DNA from: Candidatus Nomurabacteria bacterium
GTDB lineage: Bacteria > Patescibacteriota > Minisyncoccia > Phycocordibacterales > UBA9973
DNA length: 64,000 bases
Assembly: GCA_023898605.1 (NCBI GenBank)
Contig: CP060230.1
Location: 67,944 to 131,943, forward strand
Reading direction: 5' to 3'
A program made the translations under genes and the position numbers. Shown here one piece after another: positions 5,971 to 35,782 of the stretch. Under the pieces are notes generated by a model. The model did no database searches, was not told where the DNA came from, and was given only the letters and a program-made list of their open reading frames with translations. Numbering within the stretch: position 1 is the first letter of the stretch; each line of letters begins with the position of its first letter.

Positions 5971-8900
5971 ATGAATAACTATGATCACAAAGGAATAGAA
6001 CGTAAGTGGCAAGAGAGGTGGGAGAAAGACGGTATTTATACTGTTTCGGACAAGGAAGAAAACAAAGATAATTTCTATACTCTAGTAGAATTTACATATC
6101 CATCTGGAGATTTGCATGTTGGCCACTGGTACGCGTTTGCAGTGCCAGATATTTTCGCACGATATAAAAGGATGCAAGGATACAACTCACTTTATCCTAT
6201 GGGATTTGATGCGTTTGGACTACCAGCAGAAAATGCAGCGATAAAACTAGGCGCAGATCCAAAGGTTTGGACATATGAGCAGATGGACAAGATGCGTGGG
6301 CAATTCAAAACAATGGGAGCAAGTTTCGACTGGGATAGAGAGGTAGTTTCTTGCGACCCGAATTATTACAAATGGACACAGTGGATGTTCAACCAATTTC
6401 TAAAAAATGATTTGGTTTATCGCGATACTACCAAGGTAAACTGGTGTCCCAAAGACAAGACAGTTCTTGCCAATGAACAAGTTGTAGACGGCAAATGCGA
6501 GCGATGTGGAAGTGAAGTAGAGCAGAAGAACCAGGATCAGTGGATGATTCGTATTACAAAATATGCCGATAGATTGATAGACGATCTGGATATTCTAGAT
6601 TGGCCAGATGCGATAAAAGATGCACAAAAAGCATGGATAGGAAGAAGCGAAGGAAGTGAGATAAGTTTTTCTCTAAATTATGAAAAAGAAAAAGTAAAAA
6701 ATGAATATTTCAAGTTTAGACCAGAACTTGTTGAATTAATTGAAAAAGGTTTGAAGACAGCAACCTTTAGAATGGAAGCTAAAAATGTTTCTGTTGGCGA
6801 TATTGTTAGTTTGATTAATTGGTCAGATGGCAAAGAAAGTAATCAAAAAGAGTTTGATAAAGCTAAAATAATAAAAGTCTCGGAACATAAATTAGGAGAT
6901 TTGCCACTTGATTATCCTGGTCACGAAAAAGATTCTTCAGTAGAAAAAAGACTTGCAAGGTATCAAGAATACTATGGCGACCACATAACAAACGATTCAA
7001 CTGTTTATATATATGAATTTCTTCCTCTTTCAATTCGTGTTTTCACCACTCGCGCAGACACACTATTTGGCGTGACATATGTTGTACTTGCTCCAGAACA
7101 CCCACTAGTAAATAAACTTCTTGATCAAGTAGAGAACAAAGAAGAAGTAGAAAAGTATATAGAAGAAACAAAGAAAAAGTCAGAACTAGAAAGACAAATT
7201 GGTTCAAAAGATCCTTCGACTGGCTCAGGACTAGGAAAAACTGGCGTAGAATTAAAAGGTATAACTGCAATAAACCCAGCAAATGGTGAAGAAGTGCCAG
7301 TTTGGATTGCAGACTATGTGCTTGCTGGGTATGGTACAGGTGCTGTTATGGCGGTACCTGCTCACGATGAGCGAGATTTTGAATTTGCAAAGAAATATGG
7401 ATTAGATTCTAAAATAGTTATTGTGAATTCGACCGGAGAGTGTACAGACGATGCTATTTCAAGAAATGTTGTTAAATCTTTTATAGAAAAGGACGGAAAT
7501 GTATATTTAGTAAGAGATATAGGTCCAAGCGGAAAGTCTTACTGGTCACTTCCTGGTGGTGGATATGAAGATGCAGAAGACGATATCTCTGCACTTACAA
7601 GAGAAATCATGGAAGAAACTCCATTTCGAAATATAAAAATTGGACAATTCATAGGGGCATCAAGACATTGCTATGATTTCAAAGCTATAAAAAATTCACG
7701 TTTAACAAAAATATTTTACGCAAGTTATGATATTGAGAATAAAAATTCAAACCCTCAAGTTCCTGGAAACTGGTTTCCAAAAGATGAGGCAATAAGGATG
7801 CTTTTGGAAGATGGAATAATAATAGAAGGAAACATACTAAGTAACTACTTTGAAGGAAAAATTAATACAGATAATGGAATTTTGATAAATTCTGGAAATT
7901 TTAATGAAATAACTTCAGAAGAAGCTAAGAAAAAAATCACAGAATTTGTTGGAGGAAAAATGGTAAAGACTTACAGACTTCGTGACTGGGGAATAAGCCG
8001 CCAGAGATATTGGGGTTGTCCTATACCTATAGTTTACGATCCGGAAGGAAAAGCTCACGCGATCCCAGACGAACATTTGCCATGGATATTGCCGACAGAT
8101 GTAGATCATACTCCAGACGGAACACCACCTCTTGCAAGAAGCAAAGAGCTTTTTGAACGAACAGAAAAAATATTTGGCGAAGGTTGGAAGCCAGAAGTAG
8201 AAACAATGGATACATTTGTAGATTCTTCTTGGTATTTCTATAGATACTTAGATAACAAAAACGAAAAAGAATTTGCATCGATAGATAGTATGGATGCATG
8301 GATGCCGATAGATATGTACATGGGAGGAGCAGAGCATACAACTATGCACTTACTATATTCACGATTCTGGACAAAAGCTCTTTATGATCTCGGACTAGTA
8401 AAAGATAACGAGGCATATAAGATGAGACGAAACAGAGGGCTTATACTTGGTCCAGATGGAAACAAGATGAGTAAATCAAAAGGAAACGTCATAAATCCAG
8501 ACGAAGTTGTAGATAGGCTTGGTGCAGATACGGTGCGATTGTACCTTTGTTTTATGGGGCCATACGGAGTGACTGTAAACTATCCGTGGGATCCAAACGG
8601 GGTTGTAGGTGTGAGAAGATTTCTAGAAAGAGTTTGGAAATTGAAAGAAAAAATAGATCCAGAGAAAAAAGTTTGTCGTACAGACCCACTTGTACACAAA
8701 ACAATCAAAGGCGTCACGAGTGACATGGAAGAGTTCAAGTTTAACACTGCTATATCCAAGATGATGATACTATCCAACGCTTTGGAAGGAGAGGATAAGA
8801 TAGTAGAAGCTTCTTATAAAGCCCTGCTTCGTCTTCTTTCACCATTTGCACCACACATAACAGAAGAGTTATGGCAATCTTTTGGACATTCTTCGTCAGG

Positions 8901-9159
8901 CTCAGAACAAGGAACAGAAAGTATCCACCTTTCTTCTTGGCCAGAATACGATGAGAGCATGACAAAAGACGAGACCGTTATGATTGGTATTCAGATTAAC
9001 GGCAAGGTTCGTGGTGAAGTAGAGGTTGGAGACGAAGATACAGAAGAATCAGTGAGAGAGAAGGTTATGTCTATAGACAAGATAAAACCATGGTTAGAAG
9101 GAAAAGAAATCAAGAAATTTATCTACGTAAGCAAGAAGATTGTTAACATTGTCGTATGA
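5971..9159 (+). CDS. leuS: leucyl-tRNA synthetase with two extra inserted domains
   Basis: Has a HIGH-type motif (HVGH), the CP1 strings TTRADTLFG and AVPAHDERDFEFAKKYGL, and KMSKS. At 1062 aa it exceeds the roughly 800-860 aa I recall for bacterial LeuRS. Confidence 0.95.
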   Translation: MNNYDHKGIERKWQERWEKDGIYTVSDKEENKDNFYTLVEFTYPSGDLHVGHWYAFAVPDIFARYKRMQGYNSLYPMGFDAFGLPAENAAIKLGADPKVWTYEQMDKMRGQFKTMGASFDWDREVVSCDPNYYKWTQWMFNQFLKNDLVYRDTTKVNWCPKDKTVLANEQVVDGKCERCGSEVEQKNQDQWMIRITKYADRLIDDLDILDWPDAIKDAQKAWIGRSEGSEISFSLNYEKEKVKNEYFKFRPELVELIEKGLKTATFRMEAKNVSVGDIVSLINWSDGKESNQKEFDKAKIIKVSEHKLGDLPLDYPGHEKDSSVEKRLARYQEYYGDHITNDSTVYIYEFLPLSIRVFTTRADTLFGVTYVVLAPEHPLVNKLLDQVENKEEVEKYIEETKKKSELERQIGSKDPSTGSGLGKTGVELKGITAINPANGEEVPVWIADYVLAGYGTGAVMAVPAHDERDFEFAKKYGLDSKIVIVNSTGECTDDAISRNVVKSFIEKDGNVYLVRDIGPSGKSYWSLPGGGYEDAEDDISALTREIMEETPFRNIKIGQFIGASRHCYDFKAIKNSRLTKIFYASYDIENKNSNPQVPGNWFPKDEAIRMLLEDGIIIEGNILSNYFEGKINTDNGILINSGNFNEITSEEAKKKITEFVGGKMVKTYRLRDWGISRQRYWGCPIPIVYDPEGKAHAIPDEHLPWILPTDVDHTPDGTPPLARSKELFERTEKIFGEGWKPEVETMDTFVDSSWYFYRYLDNKNEKEFASIDSMDAWMPIDMYMGGAEHTTMHLLYSRFWTKALYDLGLVKDNEAYKMRRNRGLILGPDGNKMSKSKGNVINPDEVVDRLGADTVRLYLCFMGPYGVTVNYPWDPNGVVGVRRFLERVWKLKEKIDPEKKVCRTDPLVHKTIKGVTSDMEEFKFNTAISKMMILSNALEGEDKIVEASYKALLRLLSPFAPHITEELWQSFGHSSSGSEQGTESIHLSSWPEYDESMTKDETVMIGIQINGKVRGEVEVGDEDTEESVREKVMSIDKIKPWLEGKEIKKFIYVSKKIVNIVV

Positions 9160-18556: not shown

Positions 18557-19285
18557 TTAATTTATTGTCGGCTGAATGTTTTCTTTGTAATAAATAGCGT
18601 CAGATATTCTTCTAAGTCTTTCGAAGAATAGCATACTAACAATTGCGAGAACCCATAGAACGCCATAAAGTCTCCAGAATTGTTCTCCTGTATCATTAAT
18701 TATAAGGAAATTAAACGTTCCGTGCAATAAAATTGCCACCATAATCCCCACAATACTATAAAAGACTCTGACTATTTTTAGATATCTAAACCCTAGTCCC
18801 ATGCCTATACCTATTGCTGCACTCGATATAGTGTGCAGGATTGATGCACCCAAGAATCTGAGTCCGCCTGTAAGAAGACTAACTGTAGTGTCTTGTGTTG
18901 TTATCGGATCAAACAAGAACATAGAGTTTTCTAGCGCAGAAAATCCAAGAGCAATCGTTATAAAATAGATAGGGAAGTCTATAGGTTCGTCTGCCTTGCC
19001 ACTAGGCAAGATTATTATTATGAACATCAAGAATTTTAGGATTTCTTCTGATGCTGCAGCAAGTCCGACAAATGTTTTGTCGTCGATAGAAATACTGCTC
19101 AAAAACTCCTGTATAGGCAAGACAAGTGGTACAGCTATCATTCCTCCTAGGAATGCCAAAAACAAAAGACCTTTTGGTTCGGGTCTTTTGTCATCTTCTT
19201 TGAGCCAAAACCATAGCCAGACTAGAGCTGGAATGATTCCACTTGCTATAGCAACCAATATATTGTTTATGCTTTGATACTCCAT
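18557..19285 (-). CDS. PrsW-family intramembrane metalloprotease
   Basis: A polytopic protein with the EEILKF and HGTFNF motifs. Confidence 0.7.
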   Translation of the reverse strand: MEYQSINNILVAIASGIIPALVWLWFWLKEDDKRPEPKGLLFLAFLGGMIAVPLVLPIQEFLSSISIDDKTFVGLAAASEEILKFLMFIIIILPSGKADEPIDFPIYFITIALGFSALENSMFLFDPITTQDTTVSLLTGGLRFLGASILHTISSAAIGIGMGLGFRYLKIVRVFYSIVGIMVAILLHGTFNFLIINDTGEQFWRLYGVLWVLAIVSMLFFERLRRISDAIYYKENIQPTIN

Positions 19286-21456
19286 TTCTCTACCATAAGA
19301 GGACTATCGTGTCCCAAGAGTGACCATATTTCTTCTGTTACAAATGGCATGAATGGATGAAGCGCTTTGATCTGTTCTTTTAGTAGATACAGAAGCGTAT
19401 ATTTTGCAGAGTCATTCATGTCTTTTTTACACTCTTCTATTATGATATCAGCAAATCTGTGCCAGAAGAAGTGGTAAAGCTTCTCGCCGACTAGGTATAA
19501 CTTGTATTCTGTCATTTCTTTTGTAATTTCTTCCAAAAGTTTTTGCCACTCGTCTATATATTCTTGGTGAGAAGGATCTAGTTTTGGAGTAATAGAAGTA
19601 TCGAAGTCAGAAGTATTTTCTAAAACAAATCTTGTAGCGTTCCATATCTTGTTACCAAACTTTTTGTAAGCTTTGATTTTTTCTTCGCTCAAGTTGTTGT
19701 CTCCTCCTGGTCCTATGCCAACGATTAGACCCATACGTAGCGCGTCAGCACCGTAGTCTTTTATAACATCTACTGGGTCTAGTGTGTTTCCTAGAGATTT
19801 ACTCATCTTTCTTCCTTGTTTGTCACGAACGAGCCCGTGTAGATATACGTTCTTGAACGGTATTTCTCCTATTAGGTATTTTGTCATAAGAACCATTCTT
19901 GCAACCCAGAAAAAAATTATGTCATAACCAGTTTCGAGAACAGTTGTTGGGTGGTATATGCTATCTTTCGAATTCGCGAGCCATTTCTTGAGATCTATAT
20001 CATAAACTTCTTTGTCTAGAAGCGTAGAGAATGTCCAAAGACCGGAAGAAAACCAAGTGTCTAGTGTATCTTCGTCTTGTACCCAGCCGTCTCCAGGAGA
20101 AGTTTTTGAAACTTCTATTTTTCCGTCTTTGTGCCAAGCTGGAACTCTGTGCCCATACCATATTTGTCTAGAGATATTCCAGTCACGCAAGTTTTCTATC
20201 CAGTTTGTATAAACTCTCTCATATCTTTCTGGCATTATGTTTATTTCGCTCTCTTTTACAACATCTAACATTAGATCTTTGAGACTTTTTCCTGTTTCGT
20301 TTTTCTTGTTTACATCAACCCACCATTGCATTTTAGGTAGTGGTTCTATAATCCCGCCAGTACGTTCTGCTGTTGCAACGCTTTGCACAACCTCTTCTTC
20401 ATTTATTAGAAGGTTTTCTTTTCGTAGCCACTCAACAACAGCTTCTCGCGCTGCTTCAACTTTTGTATCTTTTACTCCTTCCATACCAACTGTCATCTTG
20501 GCGTATTCGTTTATAACTTGTTTCATTGGTAGGTTGTGTCTTTCCGCGATTTCCCAGTCTGTTTGACTATGCGCTGGAGTAACACCAAGAGCGCCAACTC
20601 CAAACTCTGGATCGACTTCTTCGTCGGCAATTATTTTTACAGTTACAGTTTCGCCTGCAAACTCGAAAGAATATTCTTTGCCTACGTATTCTTTATATCT
20701 AGCATCATCTGGGTGTACAGCAACTGCAGTATCTCCAAGTTTTGTTTCTGGTCTTGTTGTTGCTATAGGGAAGGGGAAGTCGTTAGAGTATTTGAAAGTG
20801 TACATTTTACTTTTTCTTTCTTCTCTAACTATTTCGTCATCGGAAATAGTCGTTTGACCTTTTGGATCCCAGTTTACTATTCTTTCTTTTCTGTATATAA
20901 GTCCGTCGTCATACATCTTTTTAAACGCAGAGAAGACAGCTTCATGTCTTGTTTCGTCTAGTGTGTAAGCTTCTCGTGACCAGTCGAGTGATGCACCCAT
21001 CTTTATACATTGAGAAATGATAGTGTCGTGAGAGTCCTGTGCGAACTTCTCAACTCTTTTCAAGAATTCTTCACGTCCCAAATCTTGTTTTCTAATTTTT
21101 TCTTTTGCCAACTCTTTTTCTACTTTTGACTGTGTTGCTATGGCTGCATGATCTGTTCCTGGTATCCAAAGTGTCCTGAGTCCTCGCATTCTAGCGAAAC
21201 GAACCATTATGTCTTCTATTGCGAGCATAGAAGCGTGTCCTGTGTGCAGTGTTCCTGTTACGTTTGGAGGAGGGAGAACAATAGAGAAAATCTCGGCGTC
21301 TTTGTCTGTAAAACCTTTTTCTATACAAATATCTGGATTAAAAAGTCCGCTTTTTTGCCACATATCATATATGCGATCTTCTGTGTCTATGTGGTCGTAT
21401 GGAGACAAGAATTTCTCCGGTATGCTTGTCCCGTTAGATTTTTCATTTGAATTCAT
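19267..21456 (-). CDS. valS: valyl-tRNA synthetase (short form, no C-terminal coiled coil)
   Basis: Shows PPPNVTGTLHTGHA and KMSKSLGN. It ends at 729 aa, right after the anticodon-binding domain. Confidence 0.95.
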   Translation of the reverse strand: MNSNEKSNGTSIPEKFLSPYDHIDTEDRIYDMWQKSGLFNPDICIEKGFTDKDAEIFSIVLPPPNVTGTLHTGHASMLAIEDIMVRFARMRGLRTLWIPGTDHAAIATQSKVEKELAKEKIRKQDLGREEFLKRVEKFAQDSHDTIISQCIKMGASLDWSREAYTLDETRHEAVFSAFKKMYDDGLIYRKERIVNWDPKGQTTISDDEIVREERKSKMYTFKYSNDFPFPIATTRPETKLGDTAVAVHPDDARYKEYVGKEYSFEFAGETVTVKIIADEEVDPEFGVGALGVTPAHSQTDWEIAERHNLPMKQVINEYAKMTVGMEGVKDTKVEAAREAVVEWLRKENLLINEEEVVQSVATAERTGGIIEPLPKMQWWVDVNKKNETGKSLKDLMLDVVKESEINIMPERYERVYTNWIENLRDWNISRQIWYGHRVPAWHKDGKIEVSKTSPGDGWVQDEDTLDTWFSSGLWTFSTLLDKEVYDIDLKKWLANSKDSIYHPTTVLETGYDIIFFWVARMVLMTKYLIGEIPFKNVYLHGLVRDKQGRKMSKSLGNTLDPVDVIKDYGADALRMGLIVGIGPGGDNNLSEEKIKAYKKFGNKIWNATRFVLENTSDFDTSITPKLDPSHQEYIDEWQKLLEEITKEMTEYKLYLVGEKLYHFFWHRFADIIIEECKKDMNDSAKYTLLYLLKEQIKALHPFMPFVTEEIWSLLGHDSPLMVEKWSIKA

Positions 21457-22397: not shown

Positions 22398-22432
22398 ATG
22401 CGCGGCAAGTAATTACTTGCCGCGCATTTTTT
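22398..22432. terminator. strong intrinsic terminator between convergent genes
   Basis: The 13-bp stem atgcgcggcaagt/acttgccgcgcat is followed by a T-run. Confidence 0.75.
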
Positions 22433-23585
22433 ATCCTTCGATTCGGAGATTTCCTTCGGCACGGATTTCATCCACCGGTATACTTTGACCGAAATAAAAC
22501 GAAGCTATCGCAACCATGAGAGCGTTGTCTCCAGACAGATCACTTCTCGGATAGAATATTTTTGTATCAGATAGTTCTTTTATGAGTCTTTCTTTTAGGT
22601 AAGAGTTAGCAGCTACTCCACCACCAACAACAAGCATGTTTGATCCAAACTCTTTCATGGCATCCACAGTTTTCTTTACTAGTACATCTACAGCTGCATC
22701 TTCGAACGCTCTCGCTACTTCAGACTTGTCCATGTCATCTTGGTTTTTCTCGACATAGTATCTAACTGCTGTCTTGAGTCCAGAAAAAGAAAAATCATAA
22801 CTTTTTTCGTGCATCATAGGTCGTGGAAAGCCAATTTCTTCTTTTTCGTGTATCTTTCTATGCTTGTCGGCTATTTTAGATATTTCTGGTCCGCCAGGAT
22901 ATGGGAGTCCGAGCATTCTTGCTACTTTGTCAAAAGCTTCACCTACAGCGTCGTCTTTGGTTTCGCCAAGTATTTTGTACATGCCCCAGCCATCTACTTT
23001 TACAAGTTCTGAGTGTCCTCCGGAAACTAGTAGTGATATAAATGGAAACATATCTTCTCTTATTGTGAAGTTTTTGTTTCCGTCTTCTGCAAATACAGAA
23101 AATATATGACCTTCCATGTGGTTTATAGGTATAAGAGGTATATCCCACAACACTGATAGTGCTTTTGCAAAGTTTATACCAACCCACAATGTCGGCTCTA
23201 GTCCTGGTCCTCTTGTAACCGCTAGCTGATCTACTCCCTTGATATCGTATTTTTTTGCAAAGACTAGTAGATCTTCGTATAGTCCAGTTTCTCTTTCTAG
23301 TATTTCTTTGGCTTTTTCTAATCTTGTTTTGTCTACTTCTCCAGACTTTTCTTGTATCATTCCTGCTTCACGAAGTGCGAGTTCTAGTATGGGAACGAGT
23401 GCTTTGGCGTGTTCTCTTTTTGCGACAGCAGGGAAAACACCACCGTATTTGGCGTGGATCTGCGCTTGTGATGCTATGCAATTAGAAAGTATCTCGAAGT
23501 GTGTTTCTTCGTCGCTATCTTTTTGTGTACTAAGTATCGCTATGGCTGTTTCGTCACAAGATGTTTCTATCCCCAAAATTTTCAT
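22431..23585 (-). CDS. tsaD: tRNA N6-adenosine threonylcarbamoyltransferase TsaD
   Basis: Shows MKILGIETSCDETA, HMEGH and VSGGHSELV, with the full Kae1/Gcp architecture. Confidence 0.95.
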   Translation of the reverse strand: MKILGIETSCDETAIAILSTQKDSDEETHFEILSNCIASQAQIHAKYGGVFPAVAKREHAKALVPILELALREAGMIQEKSGEVDKTRLEKAKEILERETGLYEDLLVFAKKYDIKGVDQLAVTRGPGLEPTLWVGINFAKALSVLWDIPLIPINHMEGHIFSVFAEDGNKNFTIREDMFPFISLLVSGGHSELVKVDGWGMYKILGETKDDAVGEAFDKVARMLGLPYPGGPEISKIADKHRKIHEKEEIGFPRPMMHEKSYDFSFSGLKTAVRYYVEKNQDDMDKSEVARAFEDAAVDVLVKKTVDAMKEFGSNMLVVGGGVAANSYLKERLIKELSDTKIFYPRSDLSGDNALMVAIASFYFGQSIPVDEIRAEGNLRIEG

Positions 23586-23634
23586 GTCTATATATTATAC
23601 AAGATTTTTGTTTGATGCGTGTTATATTGTTGTT

Positions 23635-24600
23635 ATGTTTTCAGAAGACGAAGAAAAAAGTGAAAAATTAACAAAGATTTTAGATCAAAATGGTTTTACC
23701 AAAAAGGAAATCGGTATAGCCATTATTGACTTGAAAGAACCTGAGCCAAAGATTTTTGGGTATAATTTTGAGCACTTTATATATCCTGCCTCTGTTTACA
23801 AAGTCTTTATTGGCGCGGAAGCATTGCGTAGAATTGAGTCCGGTGATTTTTCACTAGAGCAAGTTATTGAAGTAAAGTATCCAAATGATGTAGATAAAGA
23901 TGCAAAGATTTTTCCAGGAGATAACAGAAATCTTTTAAAATCTGGCGATAGAGTAACTATAGATTATTTGCTTGATCTTATGTTTACTCGTAGCGACAAT
24001 ACAGCATCCAATTGTCTTATAGATTTAGTGGAAAGAGAAAGTATAACTAAAAATATAATATACAAATATAACTGGCAGGGAAGTGAAGTAACAAGAAAGT
24101 TTTTGGATAGAACAAAAGAAGATAAACCATATAGATATTCGGATACTACTATGACATGCGCAAGACATGTTGCAGAATTTTTTTACCTTGTTGAAAAAGA
24201 AGAACTTGTGTCCCCGTGGGTGTCTAAAAATTTAAAAGAATATATGCTCCGATGGAATACTGGGGGGAGAAAGGGTTTATCATTATCTGATTATATTTCT
24301 TATTATAGAAAGGGTGGATATTTGGAAAACAATTTGTATCTTCCGTTTTATCGTGAATATTACAAAAAGGCAGGCTTTGCGCTAGACTATGCAGCTATCG
24401 GTGTATTTAGACTCATAAAAACAATTGTCACAAAAGGTTGGGCATTTATACGTTGGGTAAACGATGCAGGAGTAGTAACAGGAAAAAATTCACACTATGT
24501 TATATCTTTCTTTTCAGTAAACAAACAAATAAATCCTTACAAAAAATTTAATTCAGAAAAATTAGCGAAACTCATATTTGAGTTTATGGAAAATAGATAA
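23635..24600 (+). CDS. class-A beta-lactamase-like serine hydrolase
   Basis: Has an SxxK motif (SVYK) and an SDN motif. I place the start at the ATG at 23635, because the long upstream extension lies antisense to tsaD. Confidence 0.65.
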   Translation: MFSEDEEKSEKLTKILDQNGFTKKEIGIAIIDLKEPEPKIFGYNFEHFIYPASVYKVFIGAEALRRIESGDFSLEQVIEVKYPNDVDKDAKIFPGDNRNLLKSGDRVTIDYLLDLMFTRSDNTASNCLIDLVERESITKNIIYKYNWQGSEVTRKFLDRTKEDKPYRYSDTTMTCARHVAEFFYLVEKEELVSPWVSKNLKEYMLRWNTGGRKGLSLSDYISYYRKGGYLENNLYLPFYREYYKKAGFALDYAAIGVFRLIKTIVTKGWAFIRWVNDAGVVTGKNSHYVISFFSVNKQINPYKKFNSEKLAKLIFEFMENR

Positions 24601-29135: not shown

Positions 29136-29565
29136 CTCAAAAAGCGCCACTTGGCGCTTTTTATTTTTGTGAAGTTTTGCCACCCTCCCGTTCGTGTGTG
29201 CGTAAAACCCCGCTCGTAAGGACGAGAGGGGGAGGTGCGAGCGGGGCTCCCTAAAAACAAAACCACTCATATTATAAGTGGTTTTGGAGCAAGGTATACT
29301 CATCTGTCGCTATCTAAGTTACCAGTTCTTATACAACTGCTCATCAAGCTCTAAAGATATTGATAACTATTGCTCAGTCTGACCTTTATTTTCCGCGTCG
29401 TTGGCGCAAAGCACTTGCGGCAACAGATTTTTCTTTTTTTCGAGGGAGGTCCTTTCTCAAAAGTTTTGATGCAAGTTTGCCAACTTTTTTACTAGTTTTT
29501 GCCATAAAATTATATAAATTAATTATTAATATCGACCAATATAGAAATATGTGGAAAACTGTACA

Positions 29566-29594
29566 TTGAAAACTTTCTATATATTTTCTATAAT
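29566..29594 (+). promoter_or_regulatory. promoter TTGAAA-17-TATAAT giving a near-leaderless lexA-MTase mRNA
   Basis: The TATAAT ends 7 nt before the ATG at 29602. The promoter is flanked and overlapped by the inverted repeat atatagaaa (29539-29547) / tttctatat (29574-29582). Confidence 0.55.
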
Positions 29595-29601
29595 ATCATA
29601 C

Positions 29602-31050
29602 ATGATTACAAAAAAGCAAAAAAATGTGCTGGATTTTATAAAAAATTTTCAGCAAAAAAATGCTATATCCCCATCATTAGAAGAAATTAAGAAAAAATTT
29701 GGTTTAGCTTCCGTTTCTACAGCTTCTTATTATGTTGAAAAACTAGAAAGCAAAGGATATTTAAAAAAAGACGACAAACAACACAGAGGAATATCGGTTT
29801 TTGAAAACGAAAGCATGGTAAAAATACCTTTACTTGGCGTAATTGCTGCTGGAGAACCAATACAATCCATAGAAAACCGTGAAGAGATTGCACTTCCAAA
29901 GAGTAGGATAGGCAACAACAATAATGTTTTTGCATTGAGGGTCTCAGGAGACAGTATGATCGACGAAAATATACAAGACGGTGATGTGGTTGTTGTAAGA
30001 GAAACTAAAAACCCCACAAACGGTGATAAGGTTGTCGCATTAATAGATCGAGAGAATGTTACTTTAAAAACTTTTTATAAGGAAAAAAAACAAATTTTAC
30101 TTAAACCAGCAAATAAAAAATATGACTCGATTGTCATAGATAAAAATAGAGAATTTGAAATTCAAGGAGTGATGATTGATATTGTAAAACAATCATTTAA
30201 CAATCCTGTAGATATTATATTTCCAGAAAAGGCGCAGAAACGAAAAACGACTATTCCTCTAAATAAAGTAGTGTGTGGAGATTGTGTTGATGTGATGAAA
30301 AATATACCAGACAACTCCGTTGACATGGTCGTTACTTCTCCACCTTATGATGATGTAAGAAACTATAATGGTTTTAGTTTTAACCTACACGACACAGGTA
30401 AAGAAATCTTTAGAATTTTAAAAGACGGTGGTGTTGTAGCTATGGTTATCCAAGATCAAACAAAAAATTTTGGTAAAAGTTTAACATCTTTTAGAACTAT
30501 CGTTGATTGGGTGGATAATATAGGTTTTAAATTATTTGAAACAGTAATTTATAGAAAACATGGTACCGAGGGGGCATGGTGGAAATATCGTTTTAGGGTA
30601 GATCATGAATATATGCCAATTTTTATTAAAGGAGAAAGACCCAGCTATTTTAATAAAGAAAATCTTAAGATACCCTCAAAGCATGGTGGAAAAGTAATGA
30701 CTGGTAGTGGAAATAGAAAGACTGATGGAACAACAACAAAAACAGTTACAAGACCTATAAATTTAAATAAATGCCGTGGAACTATTTGGGATTATTTGAA
30801 TGCAGGTGATAAGAATCCATTAAAAAGAAAACATCCAGCTGTATTCCCAGATCAAATTCCTGTGGATTTTATAGATTGTTTTTGTCCGCCTAAAGGCATA
30901 GTCCTTGATCCGTTTGTAGGTTCAGGATCAACACTAGTTGCCGCTAAAAAGCTCGGGAGAAATTATATTGGGATTGATATCTCACAAGAGTATTGTGATC
31001 TAACAGAGGAAAGATTAAAAAAGGATATACCAAACACCTTATTTAAATAG
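29602..31050 (+). CDS. LexA (wHTH plus S24 peptidase) fused to a beta-class N4/N6 DNA methyltransferase
   Basis: The N-terminal half has LexA features: cleavage site VIAAGEP, the Ser motif VSGDSM and the Lys motif VTLKTFY. The C-terminal half has MTase motif IV (TSPPY) and motif I (DPFVGSGST). The frame is continuous. Confidence 0.85.
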   Translation: MITKKQKNVLDFIKNFQQKNAISPSLEEIKKKFGLASVSTASYYVEKLESKGYLKKDDKQHRGISVFENESMVKIPLLGVIAAGEPIQSIENREEIALPKSRIGNNNNVFALRVSGDSMIDENIQDGDVVVVRETKNPTNGDKVVALIDRENVTLKTFYKEKKQILLKPANKKYDSIVIDKNREFEIQGVMIDIVKQSFNNPVDIIFPEKAQKRKTTIPLNKVVCGDCVDVMKNIPDNSVDMVVTSPPYDDVRNYNGFSFNLHDTGKEIFRILKDGGVVAMVIQDQTKNFGKSLTSFRTIVDWVDNIGFKLFETVIYRKHGTEGAWWKYRFRVDHEYMPIFIKGERPSYFNKENLKIPSKHGGKVMTGSGNRKTDGTTTKTVTRPINLNKCRGTIWDYLNAGDKNPLKRKHPAVFPDQIPVDFIDCFCPPKGIVLDPFVGSGSTLVAAKKLGRNYIGIDISQEYCDLTEERLKKDIPNTLFK

Positions 31051-34260: not shown

Positions 34261-34310
34261 AGTCCTGCATAGTCTTAGCAAACATAGTGAACTCTGTCAT
34301 CAATATATAC

Positions 34311-35594
34311 ATGACAGAAATAATAAAAGACAATTTAAAGTATTGTTTGTACGCCCGCAAATCAACCGAAGCAGAAGAAAAACAAGCTCTTTCTATTGAT
34401 TCCCAAATCAAAGAAATGAAGCAAATAGCTGATCGTGAAGGGTTAAATATTGTTGAGATTCGTCGTGAATCTCATAGTGCAAAAGAATCAGGTCAACGAC
34501 CAGTATTTGAAGAAATACTAAAGGATATAGACGACGGCATATTTAACGCCATTATCACTTGGGCACCAGATAGATTAAGTCGTAATGCAGGAGACCTAGG
34601 AAAACTGGTTGATCGTATAGATCAAAAGAAACTAACTCAAATCAAAACTTTTGGTCAGACATTTACAAACTCACCAAGTGACAAATTTCTTCTTATGATT
34701 TTGTGTTCTCAAGCAAAACTTGAGAATGACAACAAGAGTATTAATGTGAAGCGAGGTATGAGAGCACGGTGTGAAATGGGATTATGGCCAGTACAGCCAC
34801 CAACTGGATATAGAAAGCCAAATGAGAGATTGTCTAAATGTGAAGTAGAGATTGATCCAGAAAGAGCACCGGTTATCAAACAAATTTTTGAAAAGATTGC
34901 ATACGAACGATGGAGCGGAATGAGAGTATATTCGTGGTTGCGATATGAATTAAATTTTAAAACACACAAAGGATTCTATTTAAGTGTCGGAAATGTATTT
35001 AAGATAATCAACAACACCTTTTATTACGGACGATTTGAATTTCCACAAGGAAGTGGAAACTGGTATGACGGAAAACACACACCAATAATCAGTAAAGAAC
35101 TTTTTGATGATTGTCGATCTGCAATTAAAACACAGGTCATAAAAACCCATGGAAAAGAGTTTGCGTTTACTCGAATGGTGAAATGTGGATCGTGCGGATC
35201 GGGGATTACTGCTGATGAGAAGTTCAAGAAGTTGCTAAACGGAGGAGTAAATAGACATGTCTATTATAGGTGTACGAAGTCGAAAGATAGAAAATGTACG
35301 AATCCTGCAATAAACGAAGACGATCTATTAAAAGAATTTCAGAAAATGGCAGGAACTTTGGAACTTAATGAAGTACAACTTAATGAGAAATTAAATCTTG
35401 AAATTAAGAAATTCAAAAAACTTCAAGCGATGTTTTTAGGAAAGGACAACCCAGCAGATATACAGAAAGTTGATCTCAGAAATTACATGAAATTCGTTTT
35501 GAAAGACGGAACAATTTTAGAAAAACGATCGGTTCTTGATTGTATAAAAAACGATCTAGTTTTGAAAAATAAGATCATAATAGTTAAAGAGTAA
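34311..35594 (+). CDS. large serine recombinase
   Basis: Shows YARKSTEAEEKQALSIDSQ (catalytic Ser region), a recombinase domain and a Cys-rich zinc ribbon (CGSCGSG...YYRC). I prefer the ATG at 34311. Confidence 0.9.
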   Translation: MTEIIKDNLKYCLYARKSTEAEEKQALSIDSQIKEMKQIADREGLNIVEIRRESHSAKESGQRPVFEEILKDIDDGIFNAIITWAPDRLSRNAGDLGKLVDRIDQKKLTQIKTFGQTFTNSPSDKFLLMILCSQAKLENDNKSINVKRGMRARCEMGLWPVQPPTGYRKPNERLSKCEVEIDPERAPVIKQIFEKIAYERWSGMRVYSWLRYELNFKTHKGFYLSVGNVFKIINNTFYYGRFEFPQGSGNWYDGKHTPIISKELFDDCRSAIKTQVIKTHGKEFAFTRMVKCGSCGSGITADEKFKKLLNGGVNRHVYYRCTKSKDRKCTNPAINEDDLLKEFQKMAGTLELNEVQLNEKLNLEIKKFKKLQAMFLGKDNPADIQKVDLRNYMKFVLKDGTILEKRSVLDCIKNDLVLKNKIIIVKE

Positions 35595-35710
35595 AACTAA
35601 CTTTTTAAACAAAAATACCTAACGAGATCATCGTTAGGTATTTTTGTTATTCTTTATAGCAAGGGTATTTAGTGACCCTTGTCGAGTGCTCGAACTAGCA
35701 CTCGACTCTG

Positions 35711-35782
35711 TGACCCTACGGGGAATCGAACCCCGATTACCGGCTTGAAAAGCCGATGTCCTAACCGTTAGACGATAGGGCC
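35711..35782 (-). tRNA. tRNA-Glu (anticodon TTC)
   Basis: The reverse complement is GGCCCTATCGTCTAACGGTTAGGACATCGGCTTTTCAAGCCGGTAATCGGGGTTCGATTCCCCGTAGGGTCA, which folds as a cloverleaf. Confidence 0.9.

Follow-up and report, generated by a model that had tools for sequence, protein, structure and literature searches.

Why should an essential leucyl-tRNA synthetase (LeuRS) carry a second, unrelated enzyme domain inside its proofreading domain? This question is raised by the leuS gene of a Candidatus Nomurabacteria bacterium, which lies in a 64,000-nucleotide stretch of its genome (assembly GCA_023898605.1, contig CP060230.1, positions 67,944 to 131,943 of the forward strand; hereafter the window). 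The gene occupies positions 5971-9159 of the window on the + strand as one uninterrupted frame of 1062 residues, and its product is a bacterial-type LeuRS with two inserted domains, namely an ASCH domain and a NUDIX hydrolase domain. We find that the first of these belongs to the threonine-type, YqfB-like subgroup of ASCH domains and is intact and able to fold on its own, that it is held under purifying selection, and that the beta-hairpin on which it is predicted to sit is a structurally permissive hot spot at which small domains, mostly hydrolases, are rapidly gained, lost and swapped. Going by its sequence, we favour with moderate confidence the reading that the domain is a probably active, YqfB-like N4-acylcytidine amidohydrolase, which folds on its own and is carried, at a site tolerant of insertion, by a LeuRS that is normal in other respects.

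The frame given by the listing of open reading frames (ORFs) scores 901.7 bits against the bacterial leuS equivalog hidden Markov model (HMM) TIGR00396 (leuS_bact, cut-off 548.4) and matches the Thermus thermophilus LeuRS 1h3n with E=1.5e-198. The HIGH motif is present as HVGH (residues 49-52, window 6115-6126), the KMSKS motif lies at residues 832-836 (8464-8478), and the two editing motifs, FTTRADT at residues 358-364 and AHDERD at residues 464-469 (7360-7377), fall in columns that are invariant among 108 LeuRS sequences. The main body of the CP1 editing domain (residues 354-493, 7030-7449, + strand) is recognized by PF13603 with E=1.3e-56 and aligns to Thermus residues 242-370, and the full-length AlphaFold2 model of the protein reaches a predicted local distance difference test score (pLDDT) of 88.3 and a predicted template modelling score (pTM) of 0.78. 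The catalytic and editing motifs of the host synthetase are therefore untouched by the ASCH insertion. The catalytic core, zinc module, CP1, anticodon-binding and C-terminal domains of the LeuRS of T. thermophilus (1h3n) and Escherichia coli (4aq7) are all found in the window protein; unlike these canonical bacterial enzymes, it adds the ASCH domain at Thermus positions 238-241 and the NUDIX domain at positions 371-378, and it lacks the leucine-specific domain of the Thermus enzyme (about residues 582-637, some 57 residues). The latter is replaced by 8 residues (residues 828-836, in the window 8455-8478 region) both here and in all of the 120 nearest LeuRS clusters from Nomurabacteria and Paceibacteria, the set that we used as our survey. 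In addition, the first zinc knuckle (residues 159-162, 6445-6456) reads CPKD instead of the CPKC of Thermus, with one cysteine ligand changed to aspartate, while the CERC pair is intact. The same protein has been deposited, letter for letter, as USN94868.1 from a Candidatus Nomurabacteria metagenome-assembled genome (MAG) on a 619-kb contig, where it is annotated no further than as 'class I tRNA ligase family protein'.

A first-pass annotation of this DNA, made from the sequence alone, had pointed to about 120 extra residues encoded at 6676-7032 (+ strand). The peptide quoted there is the exact translation, NYEKEKVKNEYFKFRPELVELIEKGLKTATFRMEAK...STVYIYEFLPLS, residues 236-354, and the alignments support an inserted segment of 119 residues; as it stands in place of a loop of 5-8 residues, the net gain is about 113. 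The insert is flanked by ...GRSEGSEISFSL upstream and IRVFTTRADTLFG downstream, and in the alignment to 1h3n residues 237-353 face only Thermus residues 238-241. The uninterrupted form of this site can be read in P0030, the closest insert-free orthologue, in which the hairpin reads SEGSEIDFKL-STGDE-IKIFTTR and whose core is 90.5% identical to that of the ASCH-bearing P0002. In the window protein the upstream arm of the hairpin, SEGSEISFSL (residues 226-235, 6646-6675, + strand), is kept in 120/120 relatives and lies within a strand of the full-length model that spans residues 225-235. The downstream arm, IRVFTTRADT (residues 355-364, 7033-7062, + strand), enters the model strand 354-359 and leads into the threonine-rich editing motif, with F358, T359, T360, R361, D363 and T364 invariant in the 108 LeuRS sequences; the match to PF13603 picks up directly after the insert, at profile position 22, and only 4 residues separate the end of the insert from TTRADT. 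According to the model, strand 225-235 of LeuRS runs on into the first ASCH strand (242-249) and the last ASCH strand (344-352) runs on into LeuRS strand 354-359, with a junction pLDDT of 82-91. The model thus has the ASCH domain grafted on the tip of the first, two-stranded CP1 hairpin; we count this hairpin as part of CP1 because the editing domain of the Thermus enzyme starts at about residue 224. The earlier placement of the insert just before CP1 needs refinement, in that its position is within the first CP1 hairpin, between strands 225-235 and 354-359.

That the insert is an ASCH domain, as the first-pass annotation had proposed, is borne out by profile, fold and motif. Pfam ASCH (PF04266) matches the insert alone with 36.5 bits (E=8.3e-9, gathering cut-off 21.2) and the region within the whole protein with 31.6 bits; the match spans profile positions 2-101 of 103, and the domain proper covers residues 248-352 (6712-7026, + strand). 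At E<=1, the only Pfam families found in the insert are ASCH, its relative DUF3850 and a weak match to ApbE. An exhaustive HMMER search, run over 1.84 billion cluster representatives, returned 121 relatives at E<=1e-3, mostly free-standing proteins of about 110 residues that are 35-46% identical to the insert, while a word-indexed search with the insert alone, whose index requires shared 5-mers, gave no match. The profile built from the family alignment of 60 sequences reaches E. coli YqfB (9kyf, 1te7) over its full length with E=1.8e-8. AlphaFold2, run on the same alignment, predicts a PUA-like beta-barrel with a pLDDT of 93.3 and a pTM of 0.84, and the top 21 Foldseek matches of this model in the PDB are all ASCH proteins, with YqfB first at a target-normalised template modelling score of 0.78. 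The outcome named in advance as speaking against the assignment, lack of an ASCH match together with a different fold, is clearly contradicted by these results. The hallmarks that had been read from the sequence, namely G260-L-K262-T-A-T265-F-R267, V-G-D at residues 275-277 and a C-terminal strand VYIYEF ending in F350, are all in place. The insert is acidic, with an isoelectric point (pI) of 5.67 and a net charge of -3 (the stand-alone relatives have a median pI of 5.7), and this charge argues against a general RNA-binding role. Hence, of the earlier suggestion that ASCH domains bind RNA and that some act on N4-acetylcytidine (ac4C), the RNA-binding half is the weaker for this domain, while the enzymatic half gains from its membership of the threonine-type (GKTR) subgroup of YqfB. 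A search of all six frames of the window with the ASCH profile reveals no second copy.

The direct sequence family of the insert consists of stand-alone ASCH proteins of about 110 residues ('MKTLKF..L..ILSGEKT.TWRLFDDK...GHE...YYG'), which share 40-46% identity and the near-invariant residues with it. In the numbering of the insert, to which 235 is added to obtain that of LeuRS, these positions of the family alignment are F14, K27, T30, R32, D42, G82, Y100 and F115. Unlike the window copy, members of this family are either free or fused end to end, never placed within a host domain, and no characterised member was found among them. End-to-end partners include a Mur-type ligase (P0140), a kinase-like domain and a nucleotidyltransferase-like domain, and fusions of this family are common among uncultured bacteria. 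In P0140 the ASCH domain forms the C-terminus of a protein that we read by eye as a Mur-type ligase; P0131, P0134, P0135 and P0146 are fusions as well.

ASCH proteins have been divided into GKTR (threonine, YqfB-type) and GKER (glutamate) subgroups (bioRxiv 10.64898/2026.02.27.708502), and the octapeptide GLKTATFR of the insert (residues 260-267, 6748-6771, + strand) follows the consensus G-x-K-x-x-(E/T)-x-R with the threonine of the former. YqfB hydrolyses ac4C, and seven residues are invariant in YqfB-type enzymes, Lys21, Thr24, Arg26, Asp27, His70, Glu74 and Tyr89, of which Lys21, Thr24 and Arg26 abolish activity when changed to alanine, and Glu74 slows it 100- to 1000-fold (PMC6972931). 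In the profile alignment, five of these seven are matched, namely Lys21 by K262, Thr24 by T265, Arg26 by R267, Glu74 by E319 of the G317-H318-E319 motif (6919-6927, + strand) and Tyr89 by Y335. The lysine, threonine and arginine are each conserved in at least 58 of the 60 aligned family members, and among nine fused or embedded copies (eight in LeuRS and one in the Mur-type ligase) the lysine is kept in 8/9 and the threonine and arginine in 9/9; all four residues, including the glutamate, persist in 7/8 LeuRS-embedded copies. The one in P0005 (an ASCH-LeuRS of 931 residues) has the motif lysine changed to arginine (GERWVTFR) and the glutamate of GHE changed to glycine, scores 19.8 bits in Pfam, just under the cut-off, and may be catalytically degenerate. 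The insert thus shares fold and core motif with E. coli YqfB, from which it differs in that YqfB is a free-standing protein of 103 residues with about 20% identity to it, whereas the insert is embedded in another enzyme.

Comparison of the window gene with the orthologues at loci L003 and L001 by the Nei-Gojobori method shows that purifying selection on the ASCH domain is as strong as that on the synthetase. The ASCH domain is 72-75% identical with a nonsynonymous divergence (dN) of 0.17-0.21 and a synonymous divergence (dS) of 1.4 or, where saturated, not computable; CP1 is 75-76% identical (dN 0.22, dS 1.7-2.1) and the core 74-83% identical (dN 0.13-0.21, dS 1.5-1.7 or not computable). The GC fraction over both inserts (6650-6950 and 7550-8000) is 0.29-0.35, compared with about 0.39-0.43 in the LeuRS core.

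The hairpin that holds the ASCH domain is occupied in different ways in related Paceibacteria. Between the alignment anchors it normally spans 12-13 residues, and 18/120 of the surveyed clusters have a large insert there. Assigned by Pfam, the cargo is ASCH in P0001, P0002, P0003, P0005 and P0007; a Ser_hydrolase or alpha/beta-hydrolase in P0004, P0006, P0011 and P0100; DUF559, with a Vsr-like nuclease fold, in P0008 and P0064; NUDIX in P0052, P0090, P0113 and P0119; a Ham1 or ITPase-like domain in P0070; a HAD domain in P0108; and an aminoglycoside-nucleotidyltransferase-like domain in P0024. On these assignments, at least seven unrelated families, ASCH among them, use the site. Several other clusters have 20-25 extra low-complexity residues at the hairpin, which may be scars of deletion.

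The cargo differs even between closely similar cores, and the cargo states are scattered over the neighbour-joining tree of the LeuRS core. P0002, which has both ASCH and NUDIX, is in its core 90.5% identical to P0030, which has neither, and 88.7% identical to P0006, whose hairpin carries an alpha/beta-hydrolase. The gene order leuS, TPR membrane protein, MurJ, LepA is common to the window and to the loci of P0002 (L003), P0030 (L005) and P0006 (L007), and because of these same neighbours we regard all four leuS genes as orthologues and not paralogues. The 5' junction L-K-V-E-S, with the nucleotides TTGAAAGTTGAAAGT, is identical in P0002 and P0006, and this common junction ahead of different cargo suggests that cargo was exchanged by recombination in an already occupied site. 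Similar 5' junctions are seen in P0003 (ASCH) and P0108 (HAD, LKVKS).

The second insert of the window protein, the NUDIX hydrolase domain (residues 494-633, 7450-7869, + strand), replaces Thermus residues 371-378, a stretch of 8 residues of the editing domain. PF00293 matches it at residues 506-610 with 43 bits (cut-off 21.1), and the Nudix box GGYEDAEDDISALTREIMEETPF at 7558-7626 is, by eye, near-canonical, with proline in place of the usual final glycine. Judged by segment length, about 70 of the 120 nearest clusters have an insert here, and its presence varies between close relatives: the NUDIX domain distinguishes P0050 from P0020 at 96.9% identity, and likewise P0111 from P0084, whose cores are about 96-97% identical. 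The NUDIX inserts of the orthologues at L003 and L001 are only 23-32% identical to that of the window (dN 0.70-1.03, dS 1.4-2.1), against 74-83% for the cores. We suggest that this domain has either evolved very fast or been replaced by different NUDIX modules.

ASCH-LeuRS fusions are not confined to the nearest relatives. ASCH is found at the same hairpin in LeuRS of other lineages, in P0125 and the fragment P0127, in P0133, and in P0121 and P0245, so that the architecture occurs in three LeuRS lineages. P0125 has 916 residues, a core only 46-47% identical to that of the window LeuRS and no NUDIX domain, and its cluster holds 246 member sequences. Genes next to it on its contig fall into the same 90%-identity clusters as proteins of TM7 oral taxa 346 and 349, Candidatus Saccharimonas and Candidatus Southlakia epibionticum, and from these neighbours it follows that ASCH-LeuRS is established in Saccharibacteria (TM7) related to cultivated strains. 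The LeuRS-embedded copies group with a few free-standing proteins (P0122, P0123, P0128 and P0151) when the ASCH family is placed in a neighbour-joining tree, as would be expected if a free ASCH gene had been captured once or a few times; with its 107 columns, the tree is a weak one. Pattern scans based on five close ASCH copies found one locus in GTDB representative genomes (L001, the contig of P0003) and one partial locus in JGI metagenomes (L008); evidently, either collection holds few copies close enough to fit the patterns, which are blind to divergent copies of the TM7 type. A search with the embedded ASCH domain and short LeuRS flanks returned one fragment, its 8000 candidates being apparently swamped by ordinary LeuRS.

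What, then, might the domain do? We propose that the ASCH insert acts as an amidohydrolase that strips N4-acyl groups, with ac4C as prototype substrate, and that catalysis would proceed through Lys262, Thr265, Arg267 and Glu319 in the way that YqfB uses their equivalents. The substrate could be a free nucleoside, which would place the domain in pyrimidine salvage, or cytidines in RNA. The domain would best be read as an accessory housekeeping enzyme carried on an essential and constitutively made protein, and would have no part in the leucylation machinery. We prefer this role over one in leucylation because the other families found at the hairpin are mostly nucleotide house-cleaning or salvage hydrolases, because the ASCH domain is acidic, and because near-identical orthologues do without it. 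NUDIX, Ham1 and HAD families are best known as small-molecule hydrolases of nucleotide house-cleaning or salvage, and bacteria of the candidate phyla radiation (CPR) rely on nucleotide salvage, so that such enzymes would be of value to them.

Several observations weigh against this proposal and temper our confidence in it. Two of the seven YqfB-invariant residues are unmatched, with Met268 at the position of Asp27 and Tyr315 at that of His70 (His318 adjoins E319), and because of these two positions the substrate may differ from that of YqfB. No NCBIfam family matches the insert at E<=1, and a phmmer search of the insert against all PDB sequences gave nothing at E<=10; for both reasons we do not regard it as an orthologue of YqfB. 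Since P0005 has lost the lysine and the glutamate, catalysis is not retained universally among the embedded copies. In the scanned part of the window, 30 other ORFs examined with Pfam, there is no ac4C writer and no cytidine-salvage gene. Finally, if the domain were only a passenger, both the choice of LeuRS as host and the core-like selection on ASCH would be left unexplained.

A rival view is that the domain is directed at tRNA, in that LeuRS would supply the tRNA binding and the tethered ASCH domain would deacylate N4-acylcytidine on tRNA-Leu bound for charging or editing, a possible explanation to which we give distinctly less weight than to the housekeeping enzyme. In its favour, all of the 19 ASCH proteins tested lower tRNA ac4C, YqfB itself binds no nucleic acid but an appended helix-turn-helix (HTH) confers tRNA binding on archaeal ASCH, and ac4C12 is present in eukaryotic tRNA-Leu and tRNA-Ser (bioRxiv 10.64898/2026.02.27.708502). 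The archaeal ASCH-HTH tRNA ac4C erasers Afu3ASCH and Pku4ASCH resemble the window protein in that an ASCH module is joined to a tRNA-binding module, and differ from it in that this module is a small C-terminal HTH with tRNA binding shown by experiment, whereas here it is a whole synthetase with an internal insertion, seen in sequence and model (bioRxiv 10.64898/2026.02.27.708502). They offer a precedent for LeuRS as a possible tRNA-binding partner. The site of the insert, four residues from TTRADT on a rigid two-stranded ribbon with confidently modelled junctions (pLDDT 82-91), purifying selection equal to that on CP1, and a fusion that has lasted in three LeuRS lineages, among them the 246-member TM7 cluster, would also suit such an eraser. 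However, the same preprint puts bacterial ac4C at a tRNA wobble position, and we know of no report of ac4C in bacterial tRNA-Leu; the wobble position is known to us only as C34 of elongator tRNA-Met. Moreover, the other cargo (NUDIX, Ham1, HAD and alpha/beta-hydrolase) belongs mostly to small-molecule families with no evident link to tRNA, orthologues with cores about 90% identical have no insert, and the scanned part of the window holds no writer gene. A combined version, in which a modular socket with hydrolase cassettes swapped by recombination would yield a bifunctional LeuRS, charging tRNA-Leu and also clearing N4-acyl marks or acyl damage from cytidines of the bound tRNA, we hold to be slightly less probable again.

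If the domain had no catalytic role, it might serve as a PUA-like RNA-binding or structural module that improves the binding of tRNA-Leu, for example by compensating for the missing leucine-specific domain. We consider this unlikely: the window LeuRS indeed lacks the leucine-specific domain of Thermus and the copy in P0005 has lost lysine and glutamate, but the insert is acidic (pI 5.67, charge -3) and the residues of the catalytic motif are kept in seven of the eight LeuRS-embedded copies. Compensation for the leucine-specific domain in particular is ruled out, as 120/120 relatives have 8 residues in its place regardless of ASCH. The very patchy presence and the different cargo at one site of near-identical cores could also be expected of an in-frame element that is selfish or mobile, whether intein-like or of the homing type, or of a neutral and decaying passenger without benefit to the cell; DUF559 with its Vsr-like nuclease fold among the cargo, the L-K-V-E-S junction nucleotides shared by ASCH and hydrolase alleles, the short low-complexity 'scars' in some relatives and the GC fraction of the insert (0.29-0.35, against about 0.40 in the core) are in keeping with this. 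Yet the low dN with saturated dS and the stable retention of the fusion across the 246 members of the Saccharibacteria cluster speak against it, the flanking direct and inverted repeats are only short chance matches, and a Pfam scan of the protein at E<=1 found no Hint, intein or homing-endonuclease family, so that we judge such an element quite improbable. An intein as such is ruled out, as neither a Hint nor an endonuclease family was found in the insert. That the whole arrangement is an artefact, arising from chimeric assembly of the contig or from gene calling that ran two genes together, has to be considered for a sequence from a MAG, but is hardly credible, as the frame is continuous with both junctions inside conserved LeuRS strands, the identical protein stands on the 619-kb contig, two more records of the same 90% cluster differ from it by 5 and 8 residues, P0002 occurs in two unrelated samples, and the architecture recurs in three LeuRS lineages.

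Beyond leuS, the window holds a number of other features that deserve mention. In a 499-residue ORF at 29551-31050 (+ strand), a LexA DNA-binding domain and an S24 peptidase are joined to an N6/N4 DNA methyltransferase domain, an unusual repressor-methylase fusion. A second class I aminoacyl-tRNA synthetase (tRNA-synt_1 and Anticodon_1), at 19267-21456 (- strand), has only 729 residues, which looks short for the Ile/Val type. The gene of a large serine recombinase at 34287-35594 (+ strand) adjoins a tRNA-Glu gene at 35710-35782 (- strand), and this pair may mark an integrated element. TsaD, encoded at 22431-23585 (- strand, 384 residues), is matched by Pfam in two stretches, which suggests an extra segment, and its ORF overlaps a 453-residue ORF on the opposite strand (23239-24600, + strand) with a domain of the beta-lactamase family.

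The first-pass annotation knew of no ASCH domain inside an aminoacyl-tRNA synthetase, and our full-text literature search agrees with it, as it found no paper on ASCH or NUDIX within LeuRS or on an insertion hot spot at this hairpin. Likewise, the preprint on ASCH erasers makes no mention of a fusion to an aminoacyl-tRNA synthetase (bioRxiv 10.64898/2026.02.27.708502). A parallel among the closest known systems, compared by model name, is the NCBIfam family NF040702, 'isoleucine--tRNA ligase, N-acetyltransferase domain-containing', which is likewise a class Ia synthetase with an unrelated small-enzyme domain, but differs in both the synthetase and the cargo family. To our knowledge, no exchangeable multi-cargo site has been recorded for isoleucyl-tRNA synthetases of this type.

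Bacterial aminoacyl-tRNA synthetases are usually seen as architecturally conservative, with extra catalytic domains found mainly in eukaryotes. Although both LeuRS and ASCH are known families, an essential synthetase with a socket for several kinds of cargo, and an ac4C eraser that may be coupled to tRNA charging, go beyond the routine: here an essential, single-copy bacterial LeuRS has two additional enzyme domains, and one hairpin of its proofreading domain acts as an exchangeable socket. The natural variation at this hairpin charts a place where LeuRS tolerates insertions very well, and this could be of use in protein engineering. Given that the architecture is present in oral Saccharibacteria close to cultivated strains, the function of the ASCH domain is open to experiment. 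If the domain does act on tRNA, the synthetase-tethered ASCH would be the first candidate for a modification eraser that is physically coupled to tRNA charging, and the arrangement as a whole illustrates how the ultra-small genomes of CPR bacteria may package enzymes for the housekeeping of nucleotides and nucleosides.

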